From Pseudomonadota bacterium (GTDB taxonomy: Bacteria; Pseudomonadota; Gammaproteobacteria; Burkholderiales; Gallionellaceae), in NCBI GenBank assembly GCA_021800795.1, contig JAJYYO010000010.1, forward strand, positions 80 through 64,079: a stretch of DNA of 64,000 nt, written 5' to 3'. Both the position numbers and the translations under genes were made by a program. Shown piece after piece: positions 3,090-64,000 of the stretch. Position 1 is the stretch's first letter; every line of letters begins with the position of its first letter. Under the pieces are notes generated by a model. It made no database searches. It was given only the letters and a program-made list of their open reading frames with translations, and was not told the DNA's origin.

Positions 3090-4484
3090 ATGAGTTATCC
3101 AGATTTGATTCACTCCTTGTCACTGATCGTCGGAGATGATGCCGTGCTGACAGGTGAACCGGCGGCATCCTATTGCAAAGACTGGCGCGGTCGCTATACG
3201 GGCGATGCGCTGGCTGTTGTTTTTCCATCCAACACGGGGCAGGTTGCGGAAGTCGTCAAGCTGTGCGCCGCGCAGCAAGTCGGCATCGTTCCGCAGGGCG
3301 GCAATACCAGTCTGTGCGGCGCTTCCGTGCCTTTGCCTCTGGTGCGGCAAATCGTGTTGAATCTGTCGCGTATGAATCGGATATGCGCAATCGATGCAAT
3401 CAATTACACCATGACGGTCGAGGCGGGTTGCAAGCTGGCCGCAGTGTATGAGGCGGCAGAAGGGATCAATCGCCTGTTCCCCCTCGGATTGACGGCGATC
3501 GCGCCGCATTGCGAAATCGGCGGCAATCTTTCCACCAATGCAGGGGGGATCGGCGTGTTGCGCTACGGCAGTGCGCGCAATCTGGTGCTGGGACTGGAAG
3601 TGGTGCTGCCGGACGGACGCATCTGGAACGGGCTGCGCAGCTTGCGCAAGGACAATACCGGCTATGATTTGAAACAGCTGTTCATCGGGGCGGAGGGCAC
3701 GCTGGGCATCATCACGGCGGCTGTGCTGAAGTTGTTTCCGCGCCCGCAGACAACTTGCACGGCCTGCGTGGCTATCGCTTCGCCTGAAGTTGCGGTGCGT
3801 TTGCTCGCCTATCTGCGATCGGCTTGCGGGCCTGCGTTGAGCGCTTTTGAAATCATGTCGCGCAACTGTCTGGACCTGGTATTCAAGCATATCGAAAATA
3901 CGCAGGAGCCTTTCAAGAAGCCGTATGAATGGTATCTGCTGATCAAGATGGACGATGTGCCGCAAATCGAGGTGCGCAACGCGCTGCTCGGTTTCGGAGA
4001 TGAGATATTGGCGGTGGGGCTCGCCTGCGATGCACGGCAGGCTGAACTCTGGTGGAATCTGCGCAAAAATATCAGCGAGGCCCAAAAGCGGGAGGGTGTG
4101 AGCATCAAGCACGACATTGCCGTGCCGGTGAGCCGCATCGCGGATTTCATCGCAGGAGCGAATATCGCGCTGCGCGACAGATTCACAGGGATACGCATTG
4201 TCGCGTTCGGTCATATGGGCGATGGCAACGTCCACTATAACGTGTCCATGCAGGATGCCTCCGTCAATACTGACTTTATCGCTCAGCATGAGAATGAGGT
4301 GAACCACATCGTTTACGGGGTGGTGCGCAAGCTAAACGGCAGCATCAGCGCCGAACACGGTCTGGGACAACTCAAGCGTACAACCATCCGCGATTACAAA
4401 GACCCGCTGGAGCTGGAAATGATGCGCACCATCAAACAGGCGTTTGACCCTGAGGGACTGATGAACCCGGGTAAAGTCATTTAA
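3090..4484 (+). CDS. FAD-binding oxidoreductase (D-2-hydroxyacid dehydrogenase / GlcD-like family)
   Basis: PQGGNTSLCG, IGGNLSTNAGG, FGHMGDGNVH, SISAEHGLG, MNPGKV. Confidence 0.9.
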   Translation: MSYPDLIHSLSLIVGDDAVLTGEPAASYCKDWRGRYTGDALAVVFPSNTGQVAEVVKLCAAQQVGIVPQGGNTSLCGASVPLPLVRQIVLNLSRMNRICAIDAINYTMTVEAGCKLAAVYEAAEGINRLFPLGLTAIAPHCEIGGNLSTNAGGIGVLRYGSARNLVLGLEVVLPDGRIWNGLRSLRKDNTGYDLKQLFIGAEGTLGIITAAVLKLFPRPQTTCTACVAIASPEVAVRLLAYLRSACGPALSAFEIMSRNCLDLVFKHIENTQEPFKKPYEWYLLIKMDDVPQIEVRNALLGFGDEILAVGLACDARQAELWWNLRKNISEAQKREGVSIKHDIAVPVSRIADFIAGANIALRDRFTGIRIVAFGHMGDGNVHYNVSMQDASVNTDFIAQHENEVNHIVYGVVRKLNGSISAEHGLGQLKRTTIRDYKDPLELEMMRTIKQAFDPEGLMNPGKVI

Positions 4485-36614: not shown

Positions 36615-36981
36615 GGCGGTTTTTAAGTTGAAACGTGTTGGTTGTCTTGGTAAAACTAGCTGGAAGGCCTCTAGTTTATTGGCTTCCAGCTGGTTGCCGT
36701 TATTCTTATCAAGCGCATTATTGCAGGGTTGTGGACAGTGCGCCAGTGCCGGCAATCTGGCCGGCCAGCATTGCCATGAATGCCGGTGATCGATGCGGTG
36801 TTTTGTCCAGGTACAGGCAGAAGCACATCAAACCAAAACCGTTTTGCAGAAGGGTGATCTACGCTGATTTACAGTGTGGCGATGGGGTGGACTCCAGAAA
36901 TTCACCGTAGGCCATGGGCGTTCCGCTCTTCATGCCGGACAGACTTCGCGGGGTGACCGCTCAGCCCCGAAAATGCGTAAC

Positions 36982-56419: not shown

Positions 56420-57419
56420 GGGCCAGCTCCAGCACACGCAACACCAGTTGCTCGAAGCTGATGCCCGCCTTGCGCGCCGCCATCGGCACCAGGCTGTGAT
56501 CCGTCATGCCGGGCGAGGTGTTCGCTTCCAGCACGTAAGGCTGCCCTGACTCGCTCATCAGAAAGTCCACCCGTCCCCAGCCTTGTCCGCCTATCAAGGC
56601 AAATGCCAGCTTCGCAAGTCTCTGCATTTCCGCTTCCTGAGTCGCAGCCAAACCGCTCGGGCACAGATAACGCGTGTCATCGCGCAGATATTTCGCCTCA
56701 TAGTCATAGAACTCATTGACAGGCTCAATCTTGATGACCGGCAAAGCTTGTTCTCCCAGTATCGCCACGGTGTATTCGCCGCCGCCGATAAAGCGCTCCG
56801 CGATCACCAAAGGGTCGTGCTTCGCAGCGCTCGAATAGGCCGATTGCAATTCGACTGTCGCCTTGACCTTGCTGATGCCGACGCTGGACCCTTCATTGGC
56901 AGGTTTCACGAACAGCGGCAGCCCCAGTTGTTGCACGACGTCGGCACCGTTGCTTTGCTCGGTCAACATCACGAAATCCGGGATAGGCAAGCCACCTGCC
57001 TGCCAGACCAGCTTGCTGCGCCATTTGTCCATGCCCAGCGCGGAAGCCATCACGCCGCTGCCGGTATACGGAATCCCCAGCAACTCCAGCGCCCCCTGTA
57101 CCGTACCGTCTTCACCAAAGCGTCCGTGCAGCGCGATGAAAACGCGATCGAATCCTTCGTCCAGCAGCGCCTGCAAATTTCTCGTGGCCGGATCAAACGC
57201 ATGGGCATCCACACCGCTGCGCTGCAAGGCAGCCAATACCGCGGCGCCGCTTTTAAGCGAAACTTCACGCTCGGCGGAACGACCGCCTAACAGCACCGCA
57301 ACCTTGCCGAAAGAACCAGGATCGAGGATCGAGACCGCAAGGGTCTTCCCCGCACAACTAAGGGGCTGCGCCCCAAGTTGTTGCGTGAAGGATTGAGGAT
57401 TGAGATTCTGGTTATCCAT
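56409..57419 (-). CDS. ddl: D-alanine--D-alanine ligase with repeat-derived N-terminal insert
   Basis: [32 protein letters not shown]. Confidence 0.96.
57335..57389 (-). repeat. family-B 55-bp element, copy 2 (in frame in ddl)
   Basis: Reverse-complement homolog of 54314-54368, flanked by heptamers. Confidence 0.9.
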
Positions 57420-58557
57420 GTTTCGCATACTCGCCGATAATTTTTACTTCAGGGTGCAGCAGCACCCCGGTCTGTTTTTCCACTGTCTCACGCACCAGAA
57501 TGATCAGGTTTTCAATATTTGCCGCCGTGGCGTTGCCGACATTGACAATAAAGTTCGCGTGCTTGTCAGATACCTGCGCACCTCCGATACGTCTGCCTTT
57601 CAGCCCGCACATTTCGATCAGGCGCGCCGCATGATCGCCAGGCGGATTGCGGAACACCGAGCCTGCATTCGGCAAACTCAGCGGCTGGCTCACGATTCGT
57701 TTTGCCAGCAGCTCCTTGATTTGCCTGCGCGCCGTTTCACCATTTCCCTGCTCGAATGAAAGCCATGCGCCGACAAAAAACTCTTCAGAGGAATGAGGAG
57801 CGAGGAACGAGGAATGAGAAAAACCAGCCAATTCCCCGCGATCCTCAATCCTCAGTCCTCGATCCTGAATTCTGGCCACGCTTCTGTAGCCAATTTCGTA
57901 TTCCTGCGGCGTACGCTCGATCAATTCGCCGCTGCGCGTCATCACCTGCACCTTCACCACGTGCTGCCAGGTTTCTCCCCCATAGCATCCCGCGTTCATC
58001 GCCAGCATGCCGCCCAGCGTGCCGGGAATACCGGCAAAGAACTCGGCACCGCTGCGCCCGTGCAAGGCGGCAAAGCGTGCCAGTTTCGCACCCGGCACAC
58101 CGGCCTGTGCGTAGATCAGGCCATCTTCCTGAACGGCCAATTCTTTCAGCGCGCCGTGCAGCAGCAAAACCGAACCACCGACTCCGCCGTCGCGCACCAG
58201 CAGATTGCTGCCCAGCCCGACGACCAGCAAAGGCTCATCGGGTGGCAGGCTGCACAAAAACACCCGCAAATCATCCAGGTCGACAGGCTGATAAAACCGC
58301 GCCGCCATTCCGCCGGCGCGCCAGCTGGTGTGGCGGCTCATGGGCTCGTCGAAACTCAACTTGCCCCGCAAACCAGAGGACAGAGGACGGAGGACGGAGG
58401 ACAGGCGTGTTGTTGCCGCTACGCGGCAATCTATTGATGCAGGCGCAGCAATGCTGCCCACCGCCTCTGTCTTCTGTCTTTCACGCAACAACTCGGGGCT
58501 TAGCCCCTTAGTTGTGCGGGGAAGACCCTTGCGGTCTCTGTTCTCTGTTACGTTCAT
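57412..58557 (-). CDS. murB: UDP-N-acetylmuramate dehydrogenase with two repeat-derived inserts
   Basis: [38 protein letters not shown]; ATG overlaps the murC stop. Confidence 0.95.
57788..57867. repeat. inverted heptamer arrays in frame inside murB
   Basis: gaggaat gaggagc gaggaac gaggaat ... atcctca atcctca gtcctcg atcctg. Confidence 0.85.
58480..58534 (+). repeat. family-B 55-bp element, copy 3 (in frame in murB N-terminus)
   Basis: ttcacgcaacaactcggggcttagccccttagttgtgcggggaagacccttgcgg. Confidence 0.9.
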
Positions 58558-60062
58558 GTCTGCGCCATCTGTTTGATTGCACCCGGCACGTTGCCGATAG
58601 AGCCCGCACCCATGGTCAGCACCACATCGCCGTCCTTTACCAGTTGCAGTATGGTCTTCGGCATGTCGGCAATCTGCTCGACAAATATCGCCTCGCTTTG
58701 TCCCGCCAGTCGCAACGCGTGCATCATTGCGCGGCCATCCGCTGCCACCAGCGGTATCTCTCCTGCCGCATACACTTCCGCCAGCACCAGTACGTCCACG
58801 CCGCACAGGATTTTCACGAAGTCCTCGAAAAGGTCGCGCGTACGGGTATAGCGATGCGGCTGGAATGCCAGCACCAGACGGCGGCCCGGAAACGCGCCGC
58901 GTACCGCCGCCAGCGACGCCGCCATTTCGACCGGGTGATGACCGTAGTCATCGATTAACGTAAAGCTACCTCGTCCGCCAGAGGACGAGGTGACGTTTGC
59001 TCTTTCACCCTCCGGGGGATAACCAGTGACTTGCCCGTTTACGGGCTTAGTCAAATGGCTAGTAGTTTCATCAAAGTTGGATAGAGGGAGCGCAATTTCT
59101 CCGTAGCGCTGGAAACGCCTGCCCACACCCTCGAATTCACCCAGGGCGGCAACAATGGCTTCATCCGCCACGCCGATTTCCAGCCCGATAGCAATGGCAG
59201 CCAGCGCATTCAATACATTATGGTTGCCCGCCAGATTGAGGGTAATGTCGAGATCCTTGGGTGTGCCGTTTTGTCGACATTGCGCGGTAAACAACATCCG
59301 GCCCCCCTGTGGGCGCACGTTTACCGCACGGATCTGCGCCGCCTCGCTGAACCCATAGGTGGTCACCGGCTTGGTGATGCGCGGCAAAATTTCCTGCACA
59401 TGGATGTCGTCCACACACAGCATGGCGCGACCATAGAACGGCAGATGTTCGACGAAATCCACGAAGGCCTGCTTGAGGCGCGAAAAATCATGACCGTAGG
59501 TTTCCATGTGATCCGCATCGATATTGGTAATCACCGCGAGTATCGGTTGCAGATACAAAAAAGACGCATCCGATTCATCTGCTTCCACCACGATGAATTC
59601 TCCGGTGCCGAGCTTGGCATTGGTGCCGCTGCTGTTGAGTTTGCCGCCGATCACGAAGGTCGGGTCAAACCCGCCTCTGGCCAACACGCTGGCAGCCAGC
59701 GAAGTCGTCGTGGTCTTGCCGTGCGTACCGGCGACCGCAATCCCCTGACGCAGACGCAGCAGTTCGGCCAGCATCATCGCGCGCGGCACCACCGGAATAT
59801 GGCGCGTGCGAGCAGCCTGCACTTCCGGATTGTCCTGGCCCACAGCGGTGGATACCACCACGACATCGGCGTTCTTTACATTTTGCTCGTCATGACCGAC
59901 GGATACCGCGGCGCCCAACTGGCTCAGGCGTTTGGTCGCCGCGTTTTCGCTCAGATCAGAACCGCTCACGGCGAATCCCAGATTGAGCAATACCTCGGCA
60001 ATGCCGTTCATCCCCGAGCCGCCGATGCCAACAAAATGGATGTGCTTGATTTTATGTTTCAT
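58554..60062 (-). CDS. murC: UDP-N-acetylmuramate--L-alanine ligase with internal repeat-derived insert
   Basis: [38 protein letters not shown]. Confidence 0.97.
58955..59093. mobile_element. family-A element, copy 7 (degenerate, in frame in murC)
   Basis: ttaacgtaaagct...ccctccgggggataaccagtgactt...atggctagtagtttcatc...gagggagcgc aligns with copies 4 and 5. Confidence 0.75.
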
Positions 60063-60073
60063 TTTGTCTGCAT

Positions 60074-60097
60074 GGGCGCGATTAATCGCGCTCCTAT
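60074..60097. repeat. REP-like palindrome overlapping the murG stop
   Basis: gggcgcgattaatcgcgctcctat. Confidence 0.6.
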
Positions 60098-61170
60098 GCT
60101 TCTCCTTTCTCGACTATTTCGGCACATATCCCAGCCACCGTATCTGCTGCATGGCTCTTGGCCGCATTGCGCGCCTGTTGCGCCATCGCCATTAATTTTT
60201 CCCGGACAAGTTCTCTCAATAACTGTGCGAGCCTGTCCGCATTCAGTTCTGACTGCGGCAGCAAAATAGCCGCTCCTCGTTCGCTCAAGAAACGTGCGTT
60301 ATGCGTCTGGTGATCGTCCACCGCAAACGGAAACGGAATCAACAGGCCGGCCACGCCGGCTGCCGCCAGCTCAGCCACGGTCAGCGCACCGGATCGGCAA
60401 ATCACCAGATCAGCTGCTGCGTAACTTGCCGCCATATTTTCGATGAAGGGCTGGATGTCAGCCTGTATGCCCAGCTGGTTGTACAAAGCTACAACCGCGG
60501 TGTGATGAGCACGGCCTGTCTGATGCACTACATTGGGACGCACATCTGCCGGCATTTTCGCAAGTGCTTCCGGTACGGCGTCATTGATGGCCTTCGCCCC
60601 CAGACTGCCGCCCACCACCAGCAGGTTTAGGCGGCCTGTGCGTTTTGCATAGCGCAACTCGGGCGGGTCAATATTCACAATTTGACCGCGCACCGGATTG
60701 CCGCACCACAGCGCGCCGGGCAACACATCCGGAAAACCCGTCAGTACGCGGTTCGCTACATGTGCCAGCACCTTGTTGCTCAGACCCGCAATTGAATTTT
60801 GCTCGTGTATCACCAGCGGAATCCTCAGCGCGGCGGCCATCAAGCCGCCCGGAAATGTGATATAGCCGCCCATCCCCAGCACCAAGTCGGGTCTGACGCG
60901 CATCATCGCAATCAGGCTCTGCCACAACGCTACCGCAAGATTCAGCGGCAGCAGCAGCTTGCGCAATATACCCTTGCCGCGCAGACCCGAAAAACGCACT
61001 GTCTCCATACGGTAGCCGTGTTTCGGCGCCAGATCGGCTTCCATGCTGTTCGGCGCGCCCAGCCAGGTCACCTGCCAGCCTTCACCACGCAACACGTCGG
61101 CCACCGCAAGAGCCGGGAATATGTGCCCGCCCGTGCCTCCGGCCATAATTAATATAGAGCGGCTATTCAT
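60094..61170 (-). CDS. murG: undecaprenyl-PP-MurNAc-pentapeptide GlcNAc transferase
   Basis: [34 protein letters not shown]. Confidence 0.97.
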
Positions 61171-61258
61171 GGCATTTCTCTGAGATGGGCACATTTCTGC
61201 CGAAGGCAAAAATATGGCCCCCGGTTCCACCTGCCATAATTAAAATGTTTCGGCTCAC
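61163..61258 (-). other. 31-codon mini-ORF: recoded duplicate of the murG N-terminus
   Basis: GTG-start [40 protein letters not shown]; stop lies just inside the murG start. Confidence 0.8.
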
Positions 61259-61282
61259 GAAGCACCTCCTGAGTCAGAGGAA

Positions 61283-61403
61283 TAAGGATTGAGGATTGAG
61301 GATTGAGGATACAAGTCGTTGTGTGCCGCGTCGCGGCACACTTTATCAAAGACGCGGCGCAGCCGCGACAATGCTTCTGTCCTCCGCCCTCTGTACTCTG
61401 TCG
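61283..61403. repeat. heptamer arrays enclosing two small palindromes
   Basis: (GGATTGA)x3; gtgtgccgcgtcgcggcacac; cgcggcgcagccgcg; ttctgtcctccgccctctgtactctgtcg. Confidence 0.75.
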
Positions 61404-61409
61404 CCTGAT

Positions 61410-61588
61410 TCATATTGGCAACCCCCGTGCAATCCTGCGATTTTGGCTACGCCTTAAAGAAAGATTGGAGATTATAATTTTCACAATGGCAAGCAACGGG
61501 CAAGTCGACGGTTTTGGCTGCGCCGAAACAGAAGGTTGGAAATTATTGAATTTCATATTGGCAACCCTCTGGCCAACCTTCTGTTTTC
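61410..61588 (-). repeat. ~72-bp tandem units carrying recoded ftsW C-termini
   Basis: Stops at 61553, 61481 and 61410; [30 protein letters not shown]. Confidence 0.85.
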
Positions 61589-62773
61589 ATAATCCACTCT
61601 GAGCAGCACAGCGGCGGCGATGCAATTGACCACCACGCCACTGCCGCCAAAGCTCAGGAAAGGCAAAGTCAAGCCCTTGGTGGGCAGTACGCCCATATTC
61701 ACGCCGATGTTGATCGTCGCCTGCACGCCTATCCATACGCCGATGCCCTGCGCCACCAGTGCGGAAAAGTTGCGCTCCAAAAACGCGGCGTGACGACCGA
61801 TCTGGAATGCGCGTATCACTACCAGCGCAAACAGCAGAATGACGCAAACCACACCAGCCAGCCCCAGCTCTTCTGCGATGACCGCCATCAAAAAGTCGGT
61901 ATGCGCTTCCGGCAGATAGAACAGTTTCTCCACACTGGCGCCCAGCCCCACGCCGAACCACTCGCCACGACCGAAGGCGATCAGCGCATGACTGAGCTGA
62001 TAACCCTTGCCATACGGGTCTGCCCAGGGGTTCATGAAGCCGATCACACGCTGCATACGGTAGGGCGATGAAAATATCAGTGCGGCAAACGCCAAAGGCA
62101 GCGCCACCAGCAATGCGCCGAACACCTTGACGTTGAAACCGCCCAGCCATAAGGTACAAATGGCGATAGACAAGACCACCACAAACGCGCCCATGTCCGG
62201 TTCCTGCAACAACAAACCGCCTATCACCACCATGACCACGAACATCGGCATAAATGCCCTGATGAACAAATGCGCTACCGCACCCTTGCGCACCGTGTAA
62301 TCGGCGGCATACATCACGGCAAACAGTTTCATCAACTCGGAAGGCTGTAAATTGATCACAAACAGCGACAGCCAGCGGCGGCTGCCGTTCACTTCACGAC
62401 CGATATGCGGGATCAGGACCAGCAGCAGGAGGACTGAGCCTGCCAGAAACAGATAAGGCGCATAGGTCTGCCATAATTGCACCGGCAGCTGAAACGCGAA
62501 CACGCCGGCTATCAGGCCGACGGCGATGAACATGCTGTGGCGCGTCAGATAATAGGTAGCCTGGTGAGCCGTGAACTTGCTGCCCTCGGCGGTGGCGATG
62601 GATGAGGAATACACCATCACCAGCCCGATGGAGAGCAGTGCAATGAATACCCAGATCAGCAGGTTGTCGTACTGAGCCTGCGGCGGCGGGGTTCGCGTCC
62701 GGACAGCGAAAGGGTGGGGGTGCAACCCCCGGGTACCCATCGGCGTACTCCTTGCGGGTGCTAACGAGGCCAT
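61553..62773 (-). CDS. ftsW: peptidoglycan polymerase FtsW
   Basis: [44 protein letters not shown]. Confidence 0.97.
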
Positions 62774-64000
62774 GTCGACTCCTTGGTCAGCTTTCGCACT
62801 TCGGCAATGAAAACTTCGGCGCGGTGCGCGTAATTGCGGTACATGTCGAAACTTGCGCAAGCCGGAGATAACAGCACGGCGTCTCCCGGCAATGCCAGCA
62901 TGGCGGCCTGTCCGACGGCCTCATTCATGTCTTTTGCATGCACCACCGGTACTTCGCAGTCCTGCAACGCCGCCGCTATCTTTGGCGCATCGCGGCCTAT
63001 CAGCACAACTGCGCGTGCGTGTTGAATCACGGCAGACTTTAAGGGGGAAAAATCCTGTTCCTTGCCCACGCCGCCGGCAATCAGCACCGATTTACAACCC
63101 ATGCCTTCCAGTGCGGCGACGGTCGCGCCTACATTGGTTCCCTTGGAGTCGTCATAAAAGCTCACCCCATGCAGTTTTTCGACCAGTTCTACGCGATGCG
63201 GCAAGCCCTTGAAGCTCTTCAAGGCTTCCAGCAATACCGGCATCGGTAAATCAATTGCCCGGCACAAGGCCAGCGCGGCCTGGGCATTGGCAAGATTGTG
63301 CAGCCCGGCGAGTTGCAGTTCGGAGGCCCTGATCAGGCGCCGACTACCCTGCACCAGCCAGATTTCTCCGCCATCTCTTTCAATGCCAAAATCAACTTCA
63401 CGCCCGGGCAGGCCCAGGCCAAAGGTGATGTGGTTGTCGCGCAGCATTGCCATGACGCGCGGGTCGTCCCGGTTCAACACCTGCACGCCGCAATCCTTGA
63501 ATATCCTTTGTTTCGCTGCCGCGTACTCATCCATGTCTGCATAGCGATCCAGATGATCTTCGCTGATGTTCAGCACCGTGGCCGCATCCGCCTTCAAGCT
63601 GAATGTCGTTTCCAGCTGAAAGCTGGACAACTCCAGCACCCATATTTCAGGCTGTTGCTTACCCCGTGCCAGCACCGCATCCAGCACCGCAGGCGATATA
63701 TTGCCCGCCGCCACCGCATCACGGCCCGCTGCCCTGCACAGGTGTTCCACCAGGCTGGTGACGGTCGTCTTGCCGTTCGAGCCGGTAATCGCGATAACAC
63801 GAGGATTGAGGATGGTGGATTGAGGATTGAGTTGTTGCGCGAATAGCTCGATGTCGCCGATCACGGGAATGCCGGCTGCCACAGCACGTGACACGAACGG
63901 GTCGCGCAGCGGCACACCCGGACTGATCGCGATCAGATCGATGCCGGCAAATAATGCATCATTGAATGCCCCGCAAAATACTTGTTCAGGGGAAACCAAT
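62761..64000 (-). CDS. murD: UDP-MurNAc-L-Ala--D-glutamate ligase (5' end outside the window)
   Basis: [43 protein letters not shown]. Confidence 0.96.
63801..63831. repeat. heptamer array in frame in murD ([10 protein letters not shown])
   Basis: gaggattgaggatggtggattgaggattgag immediately before the P-loop strand. Confidence 0.8.

Follow-up and report, generated by a model that had tools for sequence, protein, structure and literature searches.

The cell-wall gene murG begins twice in the DNA analysed here, a stretch of 64,000 nucleotides from a bacterium of the Gallionellaceae (referred to as the window; contig JAJYYO010000010.1 of assembly GCA_021800795.1). A second start lies upstream and encodes the MurG N-terminus in other codons. 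This raises the question of how one gene came by two spellings of its start, and what the upstream one does. The most probable answer, with a probability of roughly two in three, is that the upstream copy is a displaced murG gene start (Shine-Dalgarno sequence, start codon and first 17 codons), which lies beside a small hairpin cassette and is still translated, coupling murG translation to translation further upstream.

The duplicated start of murG

The features at the duplicated start are as follows:

60094..61170, minus strand: murG, 358 amino acids, with its ATG at 61170-61168
61163..61258, minus strand: upstream mini-ORF of 31 codons, from GTG at 61258-61256 to TAG at 61165-61163
61265..61270, minus strand: Shine-Dalgarno sequence AGGAGG, read from the sequence, 6 nt 5' of the mini-ORF GTG
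61117..61207, minus strand: 91-nt unit comprising the loop and X' arm of a hairpin, a spacer with a weak Shine-Dalgarno sequence, the real ATG and the first 18 murG codons to TTC

The murG product matches the N-terminal (PF03033, E 1e-36) and C-terminal (PF04101, E 2e-41) Glyco_transf_28 domains of Pfam. Codons 2-17 of the mini-ORF are a re-spelled MurG N-terminus, reaching through the G-loop GGTGGHIF, and its C-terminal tail of 14 residues derives from the hairpin and the spacer. The codon alignment reproduced the count given in an earlier sequence-only reading of this DNA: 4 of the 16 aligned codons are identical, 11 differ synonymously (at position 3 only) and one is replaced (AAC/TCT). It also confirmed that each of the nine codons of AGGTGGHIF differs between the copies, at position 3 only. 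Past the Phe codon, the similarity breaks off abruptly. The binomial probability that at least 11 of the 12 changed codons are synonymous by chance is approximately 2e-6, presuming that roughly one random single-base change in four is synonymous. The direct repeat at the murG start (repeat family D3) has a period of 91 nt.

The strong Shine-Dalgarno sequence belongs to the displaced copy, as the same reading had stated, while the real ATG is preceded by just GAGA as a weak one. The 31-codon ORF likewise ends just inside the real start: its TAG is located 5 nt inside murG, and the overlap with the ATG at 61170 reads ATGAATAG. The claimed homology between the 5' UTRs of both copies held up less well, being limited to a common ctcag and scattered matches. 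The AGGAGG of the mini-ORF is homologous to GGAGGTGCT(T/C)C, which stands ahead of the real murG start in standard cassettes such as that of genome G181.

An assembler might have joined two strain haplotypes of the murG start, given a 63-contig assembly from a strain-rich habitat and two further alleles (A and B, described below) that do occur in such samples. The probability of such an artefact is negligible. Sequence spanning the duplicate, which the sequence-only reading had called for, is present in Logan contigs of two mine-drainage runs, X1 and X2, and of X3, a sediment run from a different study, which show 0 differences over 60900-61700 at depths of 226, 62 and 52. These independent contigs, 2.6-12.9 kb in length, thus carry the same arrangement in three runs from two studies. 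The junction between leader and hairpin is also crossed by contigs of runs X4, X9 and X27, and dozens of other assemblies share the architecture, Mb-scale contigs included.

An ORF relay from ftsW to murG

Upstream of the mini-ORF, the window contains the following features:

61553..62860, minus strand: ftsW (Pfam PF01098, E 1e-99), whose stop at 61555-61553 heads the relay
61410..61556, minus strand: ORF48, relay ORF of 48 codons, whose ATG overlaps the ftsW TGA (ATGA) and whose TGA overlaps the next ATG
61255..61413, minus strand: ORF52, relay ORF of 52 codons, whose ATG overlaps the previous stop (ATGA) and whose TGA overlaps the mini-ORF GTG (GTGA)
61275..61405, minus strand: MITE-like insert with inverted heptamer-repeat ends and (ATCCTCA)n at 61306-61281

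The stops and starts of ftsW, ORF48, ORF52, the mini-ORF and murG overlap without a gap, making the mini-ORF the last link of a four-step relay that begins at ftsW. It has two initiation signals, its own AGGAGG and the GTGA overlap linking it to ORF52. ORF48 traverses two tandem 71/72-nt copies of the ftsW 3' end together with the junction; copies of repeat family D1 are located at 61409-61444, 61480-61515 and 61552-61587. ORF52 traverses the MITE-like element, whose heptamer run has more than 40 matches, dispersed in the genome. The element is found at the same ftsW-murG junction in the relatives L021 and L031.

Ancestrally, ftsW and murG meet in an ATGA overlap, and many relatives have inserts at this junction. 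ORF chains bridge 58 of 62 unique insert-bearing junctions, where shuffles expect 18.5. With overlapping geometries only (-1, -4, -5), 56 of the 62 are bridged against 6.45 expected, a ratio that overstates the number of independent events, as the junctions are phylogenetically non-independent and many share one 115-nt insert. The bridging chains employ 26 distinct relay-ORF lengths, and the lengths of single-unit inserts (97, 100, 109, 112, 115, 124, 130, 133 and 145 nt) are all 1 mod 3.

The geometry of these overlaps, on which the proposed coupling of murG is based, suggests that the small ORFs are translated and that murG expression depends on them. Ribosomes would reach the displaced start via the overlapping ORFs (ftsW, ORF48, ORF52, mini-ORF), or would load at the strong AGGAGG. 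On the mini-ORF, they would translate across the hairpin and the stem in which the real AUG is sequestered, and would stop at the UAG 5 nt inside murG. The terminated ribosomes could then re-initiate at the weakly equipped murG start, or free it. The relay and termination-reinitiation at the mini-ORF are thus proposed to preserve the ancestral ATGA coupling of ftsW and murG over 385 nt of inserted DNA. Re-initiation at murG had already been suggested in the sequence-only reading, and conservation of the stop/start geometry in approximately 25 related cassettes speaks for it on comparative rather than experimental grounds. In standard cassettes, where the real start has the strong Shine-Dalgarno sequence GGAGGTG, the relay may be dispensable.

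The hairpin and the folding of the start region

The mini-ORF runs through a hairpin:

61187..61220, minus strand: hairpin GGGGCCAUAUUUUUGCC-UUCG-GGCAGAAAUGUGCCC, -20.3 kcal/mol, z = -3.4

A fold as good was obtained with 1 of 200 shuffles. The Gly-His-Ile-Phe codons at the end of the upstream copy form the 5' arm, and the 3' arm, X', is an inverted copy of that arm. A stem between 61117-61128 and 61187-61197, spanning the real start, had been put forward from the letters of the sequence. It can form, but is absent from the minimum-energy fold and represents an alternative pairing only. In that fold, 61187-61200 is paired with the end of the upstream copy; UUAUGGCA, also in the upstream copy, pairs with the real AUG (UGCCAUGA). 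Pairing of X' with the end of the upstream copy is both favoured and conserved. The murG start of the window, with GAGA only and a paired AUG, may be weak or masked unless upstream translation occurs, yet the whole 191-nt fold around it has a z of -0.5, and standard cassettes carry the strong GGAGGTG.

Across 19 cassettes, 91.5% of cells are paired in the composite hairpin, compared with 32-47% in slid controls. Seven pairs are changed on both sides, and RNAalifold independently recovers the same structure. Short-range template switching can create hairpins and maintain them (PMC8794818). The inverted copy, like the compensatory stem changes, could be a product of such switching during replication, and not of selection on the RNA (PMC8794818). 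As in that process, an inverted copy of adjacent sequence, X', yields a long stem here, and compensatory changes would be possible in one step. However, template switching by itself explains no direct duplication of a whole gene start, and it fails to explain the foreign core motifs (RGTTACGAC ... TTAGTCTSCRCYGAAA) common to different genes.

A search of 60900-61800 against Rfam returned nothing relevant. A leader-peptide transcription attenuator of the trpL type was rejected, as the sequence 3' of the hairpin contains no U-run and hence no intrinsic terminator of this type. The sole terminator-like site lies within the MITE, upstream of the mini-ORF, and does not exceed chance expectation.

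A cassette family in the Gallionellaceae

The arrangement is not confined to the window. A break right past His-Ile-Phe, followed by the covariation-supported hairpin and a second start, is found in approximately 26 of 317 Gallionellaceae genomes. In 20 of the 317, two G-loop copies are present at a spacing of 91-133 nt, and a tail-based search, which does not require an intact leader, detected the tail together with the real copy in 24 genomes of six genera. Homologous leader ORFs are present in approximately 25 cassettes. In all of those examined, the leader stop falls on the real start, as ATGNNTAG/TAA or (A/G)TGA, and no repeat period is divisible by 3. Such a combination of geometry and period is what termination-reinitiation or unfolding coupling predicts. 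The stop is created by codons 2-3 of the real murG, which are spelled TCT AGG, ACT AGG or GCT AAG.

The insert sits exactly past the Phe codon of the G-loop (directly after …CAY ATT TTT), and insertions invariably follow a T-run. The murG insert belongs to a group of protein-less hairpin cassettes of 91-133 nt. In murG, nuoD and an epimerase gene, these are located right after a T-run within the first 11-17 codons. Mirror (3') forms occur at the 3' ends of ftsW and cysH, and all members have a duplicated gene end beyond the hairpin. A double start of nuoD with the same layout is found in 43 of 317 genomes and was confirmed in DNA contigs, X21 being without coverage of this locus. There, three copies differ among themselves in seven codons, all synonymously; two copies in the epimerase gene also differ in seven codons, again all synonymously. 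The core motifs of the nuoD inserts are common to the murG and ftsW inserts. Tandem arrays of three copies exist in G063, G185 and nuoD, and at least 10-12 gains or losses of the cassette are placed on a 107-taxon tree.

Censuses of the cores TTTCGG..CCAAAA and GGCG(N)AGCC in genome G000 yielded few copies and no enrichment over reversed-genome controls, which rules out a high-copy REP family for these motifs. The ORFs of the 91-nt insert gave no Pfam hits. As a tentative idea, the inserts may represent an undescribed, miniature, protein-less gene-end cassette, in which a hairpin core is combined with a re-spelled Shine-Dalgarno sequence, start and first 11-17 codons (or last codons) of a gene. 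It would enter essential genes in phase past a T-run, with precise gain and loss and with stacking in tandem, would leave an ORF relay each time, and could serve as a heritable expression dial, perhaps a reversible one. If so, swapping the initiation region without a change of the protein could adjust how strongly core genes such as murG and nuoD are expressed.

Strain alleles and the origin of the two spellings

Strains that are 1-2% apart carry three alleles of this locus. Allele A has no leader and was found in DNA runs. In allele B, represented by a contig of X21, position 61208 is joined to 61116 without microhomology; the 91-nt unit is exactly absent, and the leader is fused in frame to the murG body. 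In this sister strain, murG starts from the upstream spelling and nowhere else, as seen in one 151-nt metatranscriptome contig of depth 4. Allele B was not found in the DNA runs X4, X6, X9, X13, X14, X17 and X27, which contain allele A instead.

The purely synonymous differences between the copies are most likely explained if both spellings once served as real murG starts. In view of the sister strain, the synonymous saturation may reflect two once-functional starts rather than an old duplicate that diverged in place. When each copy was compared with the only copy in sister genomes that lack the cassette, no consistent signal emerged as to which is native, the third positions being saturated.

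Competing explanations

Instead of a displaced start, the upstream copy could be an old in-place duplication that was kept as a regulatory leader peptide, with selection on the peptide itself, for example as a nascent-chain sensor like SecM, MifM or TnaC that controls murG. The leaders do appear protein-like. In 20 genomes, leader and real copies differ by 129 synonymous and 20 non-synonymous codons, a count biased by a search pattern that demanded intact motifs. In the tail-based search, which is free of the requirement for an intact leader, MAGGTGGH is intact in 18 of 23 informative cassettes. The leaders of the close relatives G082, G134 and G151 are 71-88% identical with few amino-acid changes, and the cassette spans six genera. 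Should G000 and G179 have their cassette in common by descent, it would be old, and a protein-like leader would then require purifying selection or repeated allelic refreshment, for which the displaced-start account lacks an explanation. Nevertheless, a selected peptide is improbable. The same synonymous-only pattern is present at the unrelated NuoD and epimerase, which makes a peptide-specific sensor unlikely, and the cassette outlives loss of the leader G-loop: G057 retains just the stem arm GGGCACATTTTT of the leader and G138 has lost the leader, with the cassette persisting in both. Part of the conservation (Gly-His-Ile-Phe) is accounted for by the RNA stem, and allele B shows the leader spelling working as a plain gene start.

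Aberrant recombination or a template switch between two murG alleles might also have left a neutral scar, a dead remnant whose frame and overlap are accidental. Products similar to X-X'-X are given by the tandem-inversion-duplication model. The layout at murG also resembles snap-back or template-switch replication products (PMC8794818), and both the three alleles among closely related strains and the repeated gains or losses on the tree are compatible with this. Such a scar is unlikely to have kept its relay frames far above chance, and accident does not account for a leader stop that coincides with the real start throughout the cassettes, in either of two geometries. The stop-creating codons 2-3, the period that is never a multiple of 3 and the covariation in the hairpin speak against it as well.

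The upstream copy would also stay protein-like if MurG were made from the upstream start, with the 91-nt unit removed by RNA excision or skipped by a ribosome bypass from UUU to UUC. The sole molecule without the unit comes from a metatranscriptome, and its junction is exactly in phase without microhomology, whereas DNA runs contain only the full form or allele A. Furthermore, take-off and landing codons both encode Phe, and the take-off lies inside the hairpin. Still, this is very improbable. The X21 contigs diverge by 0-4% from the window elsewhere, indicating another strain, so that a DNA allele is the simpler reading, and X21 holds no full-form RNA for comparison. The bypass gap of T4 gene 60 measures 50 nt, compared with 91-133 nt here. 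In addition, the would-be take-off codon is succeeded by GCC and not by a stop, unlike in programmed bypass of the gene 60 type, and the skipped part has a complete, conserved start with a Shine-Dalgarno sequence, which would be pointless if it were bypassed. A +1/-1 frameshift at A-TTT-TTG into the murG frame was rejected, as +1 would be needed at a poor slip site and the periods of 121, 122, 124 and 133 nt in relatives place the real frame at differing offsets.

Implications

With a second start and a relay of tiny ORFs, essential genes such as murG and nuoD would tolerate inserts in their first codons, and such inserts would recur. The family would thereby provide a natural, comparative-scale test of how strongly the translational coupling of the dcw cell-division operon is protected. 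At such loci, annotation will get true starts, 'pseudo' starts and small ORFs wrong. Should the cassettes be mobile, they would constitute an added class of elements that carries gene-specific 'repair patches', and could explain synonymous-only gene-end duplicates in other uncultivated lineages.

Comparison with known systems

The displaced start shares features with short upstream ORFs (uORFs), for which translational coupling has been described by RNA-unfolding and re-initiation models (PMC12548453). In both cases, the uORF stop is within a few nt of the downstream start, which has a weak Shine-Dalgarno sequence and is base-paired within a structure that would be opened by translating ribosomes (PMC12548453). 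Unlike in those systems, the uORF at murG is a copy of the N-terminus of the regulated gene itself and would itself be coupled to three further upstream ORFs.

Three separate observations bear on a possible relation to IS200/IS605-type palindrome-associated elements or REP/RAYT, in which a hairpin-bearing unit without a protein gene is inserted 3' of a short conserved target and is precisely excisable: the insertion past a T-run, allele B, which would equal a precise absence, and five Y1_Tnp matches in G000. Such elements are not known to make long target duplications.

Integrative elements of the dusA or prfC type also insert into the first codons of a housekeeping gene. The gene tolerates this because the element supplies a new start and N-terminal codons, and the original 5' end stays behind as a remnant, resulting in two spellings of one gene end. 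At murG, the insert likewise lies between two 5'-end copies, of which the downstream one is functional. Such elements are 20-100 kb in size and have an integrase and att sites. An element with an integrase and att core repeats was rejected here, the insert being 91 nt long with no Pfam hit among its ORFs; the related inserts of 91-133 nt contain no protein gene. Moreover, the remnant keeps its start and forms a coupled ORF, and copies can be in threes.

MIRUs (mycobacterial interspersed repetitive units) are small repeated inserts in operons, the ORF ends of which overlap the neighbouring stop and start, so that ribosomes are delivered downstream at little cost for expression (PMC12548453). 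The relay ORFs follow the same logic with the same -1/-4-type overlaps, and the bridged junctions counted above represent operon inserts with an ORF that overlaps the flanking stop and start. With regard to dispersal, cores are common to the murG, nuoD and ftsW inserts, and the censuses of G000 found only a handful without enrichment. MIRUs are mycobacterial, whereas the host here belongs to the Betaproteobacteria. By their description, MIRUs insert at start codons, with no duplicated gene end mentioned (PMC12548453). The cassette at murG, in contrast, is located within the coding 5' end, past codon 17, and comes with a second, re-spelled Shine-Dalgarno sequence, start and N-terminus.

Duplicate start of murG

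In the window, murG is preceded by a re-spelled copy of its own N-terminus (the leader), which has its own ribosome binding site and forms a mini-ORF. The frames were read as follows:

61270-61265, minus strand: AGGAGG, 6 nt upstream of the mini-ORF GTG
GTG 61258 to TAG 61165-61163, minus strand: mini-ORF of 31 codons
ATG 61170, minus strand: murG (358 aa), within codons 2-3 of which the mini-ORF TAG falls

The identities of murG and ftsW were confirmed with Pfam. Alignment of 16 codons of the leader with the real copy gives 4 identical codons, 11 with a synonymous change confined to the third base and 1 replacement, exactly as counted in an earlier sequence-only reading. Each of the nine codons for AGGTGGHIF differs at position 3 only, and the likeness ends abruptly after Phe. 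The arrangement is real DNA: in three runs from two studies, Logan contigs (2.6-12.9 kb) extend over 60900-61700 and match it fully. Shorter contigs in three further runs cross the leader/hairpin junction. The observation of a duplicated N-terminus with its own ribosome binding site is confirmed, and its interpretation, namely re-initiation at murG and a stem across the start codon, is partly supported.

The ftsW-murG junction

The ftsW stop and murG start overlap as ATGA in outgroups and many relatives; the gap in the window is 385 nt. In the order of transcription, the inserted tract comprises two tandem, diverged 71/72-nt copies of the ftsW 3' end and junction, a MITE-like element, the Shine-Dalgarno sequence with the upstream murG copy, the hairpin, and the real start. 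The MITE-like element has inverted ends of heptamer repeats, and its (ATCCTCA)n run recurs at more than 40 further sites of G000, the genome containing the window. The tract is fully spanned by a continuous chain of frames from ftsW to murG, including two relay ORFs of 48 and 52 codons (ORF48 and ORF52):

Step 1, minus strand: ftsW TGA / ORF48 ATG, ATGA
Step 2, minus strand: ORF48 TGA / ORF52 ATG, ATGA
Step 3, minus strand: ORF52 TGA / mini-ORF GTG, GTGA
Step 4, minus strand: mini-ORF TAG / murG ATG, ATGAATAG

Junctions were taken from 108 distinct genomes, drawn from 41 first-search genomes, 80 named assemblies and the loci of later pattern searches. Inserts of 26-427 nt are present in 62 of them. 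Under a permissive rule, ORF chains bridge 58 of the 62 insert junctions (18.5 expected with the insert shuffled). Chains restricted to overlaps (start offsets of -1, -4 or -5 from the stop) bridge 56 of the 62 (6.45 expected), which are not independent events, as many have an orthologous insert in common. The overlap-only chains contain 111 NTGA-type and 24 ATGNNTAG-type steps, with relay ORFs of 26 different lengths. Single-unit inserts come in nine lengths, every one of them 1 mod 3. That frames are kept through so many variants in length speaks for the relay frames being read.

Together with the tandem copies, the ftsW 3' end and junction occur three times at 61409-61587 with 71/72-nt spacing, and two to three such units are also present in other families (loci L033 and L035). 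An inverted repeat, AAACAGAAGGTTGG / CCAACCTTCTGTTT, straddles the ftsW stop. Its inverted arm fits, in each relative, the ftsW codons of the same genome, which looks like compensatory change. The dispersed heptamer runs, (ATCCTCA)n or (TGAGGAT)n, include one at 61281-61306 and lie in frame within the housekeeping proteins MurB (murB, about 57412-58806) and MurD (murD, 62761-63999). The MITE, which lies between ftsW and the mini-ORF, contains a terminator-like GC hairpin (61353-61367, minus strand; CGCGGCTGCGCCGCG then TCTTTGATAA) that does not exceed chance expectation; downstream of this hairpin, no sigma-70-like promoter was detected.

The cassette family in Gallionellaceae

The duplicated gene end and the protein-less hairpin insert together form a cassette that recurs in the family. 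Two G-loop coding motifs 60-125 nt apart were detected in 20 of 317 Gallionellaceae species genomes, covering four genera, while reversed-pattern controls gave zero matches. A search for the spacer tail and real copy only, which is unbiased toward the leader, identified 24 of 317 genomes in six genera. The standard unit of 121-133 nt has four parts:

Part 1: leader copy, ...ATG GCN GGN GGN ACN GGN GGN CAY ATT TTT
Part 2: spacer, GGYTACGAC-(GC hairpin)-ATTAGTCTCC-CCGAAAAYRTGNCC
Part 3: GGAGGTGCTYC
Part 4: real copy, ATG TCT AGG ...

The break comes after the same Phe codon every time. Stop-on-start geometry is conserved: in all cassettes the leader frame terminates on the real start (ATGNNTAG/TAA or (A/G)TGA), the stop being created by the spelling of real codons 2-3 as TCT AGG, ACT AGG or GCT AAG. 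Repeat periods are 91, 118, 121, 122, 124 and 133 nt, none divisible by three, and three copies of the murG start are present in G063 and G185. The window carries a short variant, whose junction TTTTTGCYTTCGGCA is common to G179 of the same clade. Its strong Shine-Dalgarno sequence precedes the leader in a context, GGAGGTGCTTCGTG, that matches the real start of standard cassettes (e.g., G181). The window leader therefore has the look of a one-time real copy that another round has displaced.

In a tree built from 107 murG bodies, presence of the cassette is clustered (12 changes, compared to 19.4 in shuffles). At least 10 gains or losses are required, and sister genomes differ in its presence. 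Recombination between the copies, or with cassette-less DNA, would remove the cassette without a scar.

The conserved hairpin and the leader sequence

The cassette RNA is predicted to form a composite stem-loop, in which the leader end (GGNCAYATTTTTGG) pairs with CCGAAAAYRTGNCC and encloses the GC hairpin. This stem is conserved: 91.5% of cells are paired, compared to 32-47% for slid partners, and seven pairs show changes on both sides, one of which includes the third position of the His codon. Covariation scored 0.157 versus 0.092 in shuffles, and none of 500 shuffles scored as high. RNAalifold independently predicted the same composite structure. In the window, the hairpin GGGGCCAUAUUUUUGCC-UUCG-GGCAGAAAUGUGCCC has an energy of -20.3 kcal/mol (z = -3.4). 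The stem of the sequence-only reading (61117-61128 / 61187-61197) forms only when the leader arm is unavailable and is secondary; it may be the conformation behind a translating ribosome.

Leader and real copy differ by 129 synonymous and 20 non-synonymous codons in the motif-ascertained set, which is biased. In the unbiased set, MAGGTGGH is intact in 18 of 23 informative cassettes. Three leaders have 1-3 replacements (G094, G151, G170), G057 keeps the stem arm alone, and G138 has lost the leader. Pairing in the stem explains part of the leader's conservation, namely Gly-His-Ile-Phe. Identities for G082, G134 and G151 are:

Spacer and real 5' copy: 93-98%
murG body: 83-91%
Leader: 71-88%

Judged by eye, the leader differences among these genomes are mostly at third codon positions; the leader is therefore relaxed, yet far from neutral.

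Alleles among strains

DNA contigs of runs X6 and X14 come from a sister strain whose murG differs from that of the window at 2 of 247 nt. Its allele A has 24 nt in place of the 270 nt at 61147-61416, a block comprising the MITE, the leader, the hairpin and the first 8 murG codons. It reads ...GGGGGTTGCCGGC ATG AGT CGT TCC ATT CTG ATC ATG GCC GGA GGC..., a simple coupled start (ATGAGTCGTTCCATTCTGATC). At least three spellings of the first 7-8 murG codons thus exist among near-identical strains.

Allele B is a 151-nt contig of the metatranscriptome X21, joining 61208 to 61116. The leader end, ...CAT ATT TTT, abuts the murG-body codons CCG GCT CTT in frame and without microhomology, and exactly the 91-nt unit is absent. 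As X21 contigs elsewhere differ from the window by 0-4%, this is most simply a strain whose sole murG start is the "upstream" spelling. RNA processing, which would yield the same joined form, is less likely; allele B was not found among the DNA runs examined.

Coupling and origin

Translational coupling of murG is likely, as judged from the stop-on-start geometry and the relay; the stem proposed along with it is secondary. We infer that ribosomes arriving from ftsW via ORF48 and ORF52, or loaded at AGGAGG, would translate the mini-ORF and open the hairpin as well as the stem UUAUGGCA/UGCCAUGA holding the real AUG. They would stop 5 nt inside murG and either re-initiate at its start, which has a weak Shine-Dalgarno sequence, or expose that start. 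RNA unfolding and re-initiation are recognised coupling models (PMC12548453), and both fit the window arrangement. The closest precedent for the ORF relay is the MIRU; as described in a review of coupling, MIRUs insert at start codons and contain an ORF that is coupled at -4 (PMC12548453). In the present case a protein-less insert of ~100 nt lies inside a coding 5' end, and neither MIRUs nor dusA/prfC islands combine such an insert with a re-spelled duplicate start, a conserved hairpin and an ORF relay of several steps. As far as found, the murG feature is one case of a recurrent and hitherto undescribed variation on known themes.

In view of allele B and of how quickly cassettes are gained and lost, the favoured explanation of the synonymous-only pattern is that both spellings have served as real starts. 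Recurrent exchange of the ftsW-leader tract for cassette-less alleles may add to the pattern, and direct selection on the leader is possible. Candidate origins of the cassette include an element carrying a replacement start, following the logic of dusA/prfC islands in miniature, and a snap-back or template-switch event that copied the target. Mobilisation of a hairpin element by a Y1 transposase is a further candidate; G000 encodes five Y1-transposase homologues, for which no link to the cassettes was found.

Related arrangements at other genes

Scanning the whole of G000 for N-terminal peptides with a second copy closely upstream revealed three loci besides murG, on contigs C21, C55 and C43:

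C21, about 3926-4181, plus strand (locus L165): nuoD, three tandem copies of MPEIKNYTMNF
C55, indices 151144-151233, minus strand (locus L166): epimerase-like gene, copy of MYYIVTGAAGF
C43, indices 36660-36742, minus strand: cysH 3' end, mirror-image form

Seven codons vary among the nuoD copies, all synonymously, and behind each copy lie a GC hairpin and the preceding codons in inverted form. DNA contigs confirm the array, and a double nuoD start occurs in 43 of 317 family genomes. The nuoD spacer has modules in common with the murG and ftsW inserts (RGTTACGAC, AACTTGC..GCAAGTT and TTAGTCTSCRCYGAAA), pointing to a single family of elements at the ends of several genes. No high-copy repeat emerged from simple motif censuses.

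The first 11 codons of the epimerase-like gene are re-spelled upstream with 7 synonymous differences and zero replacements. An AAGGAG and a perfect hairpin (GGCGTAATG-AGCG-CATTACGCC) belong to the upstream copy, whose TAG stop lies 2 nt before the real ATG. As at murG, a heptamer-repeat MITE is located directly upstream. In cysH, GGGGTTTCGGCGTAGCCAAAAG comes after …KECGLHVSSSQKIAHGAGVSA*, and the last codons are then repeated, a mirror-image 3' version of the design, as at ftsW. The breaks at nuoD, the epimerase-like gene and cysH each follow a T-run (AATTTT, GGTTTT, CTGTTT), after which come a GC hairpin and the pre-break sequence in inverted form.

G000 contains other repeats as well. Contigs C16, C28 and C30 carry exact tandem duplications with a 227-nt period at several loci, overlapping long ORFs, and C47 (29.6-31.1 kb) has a 61-nt-period array resembling a CRISPR array.
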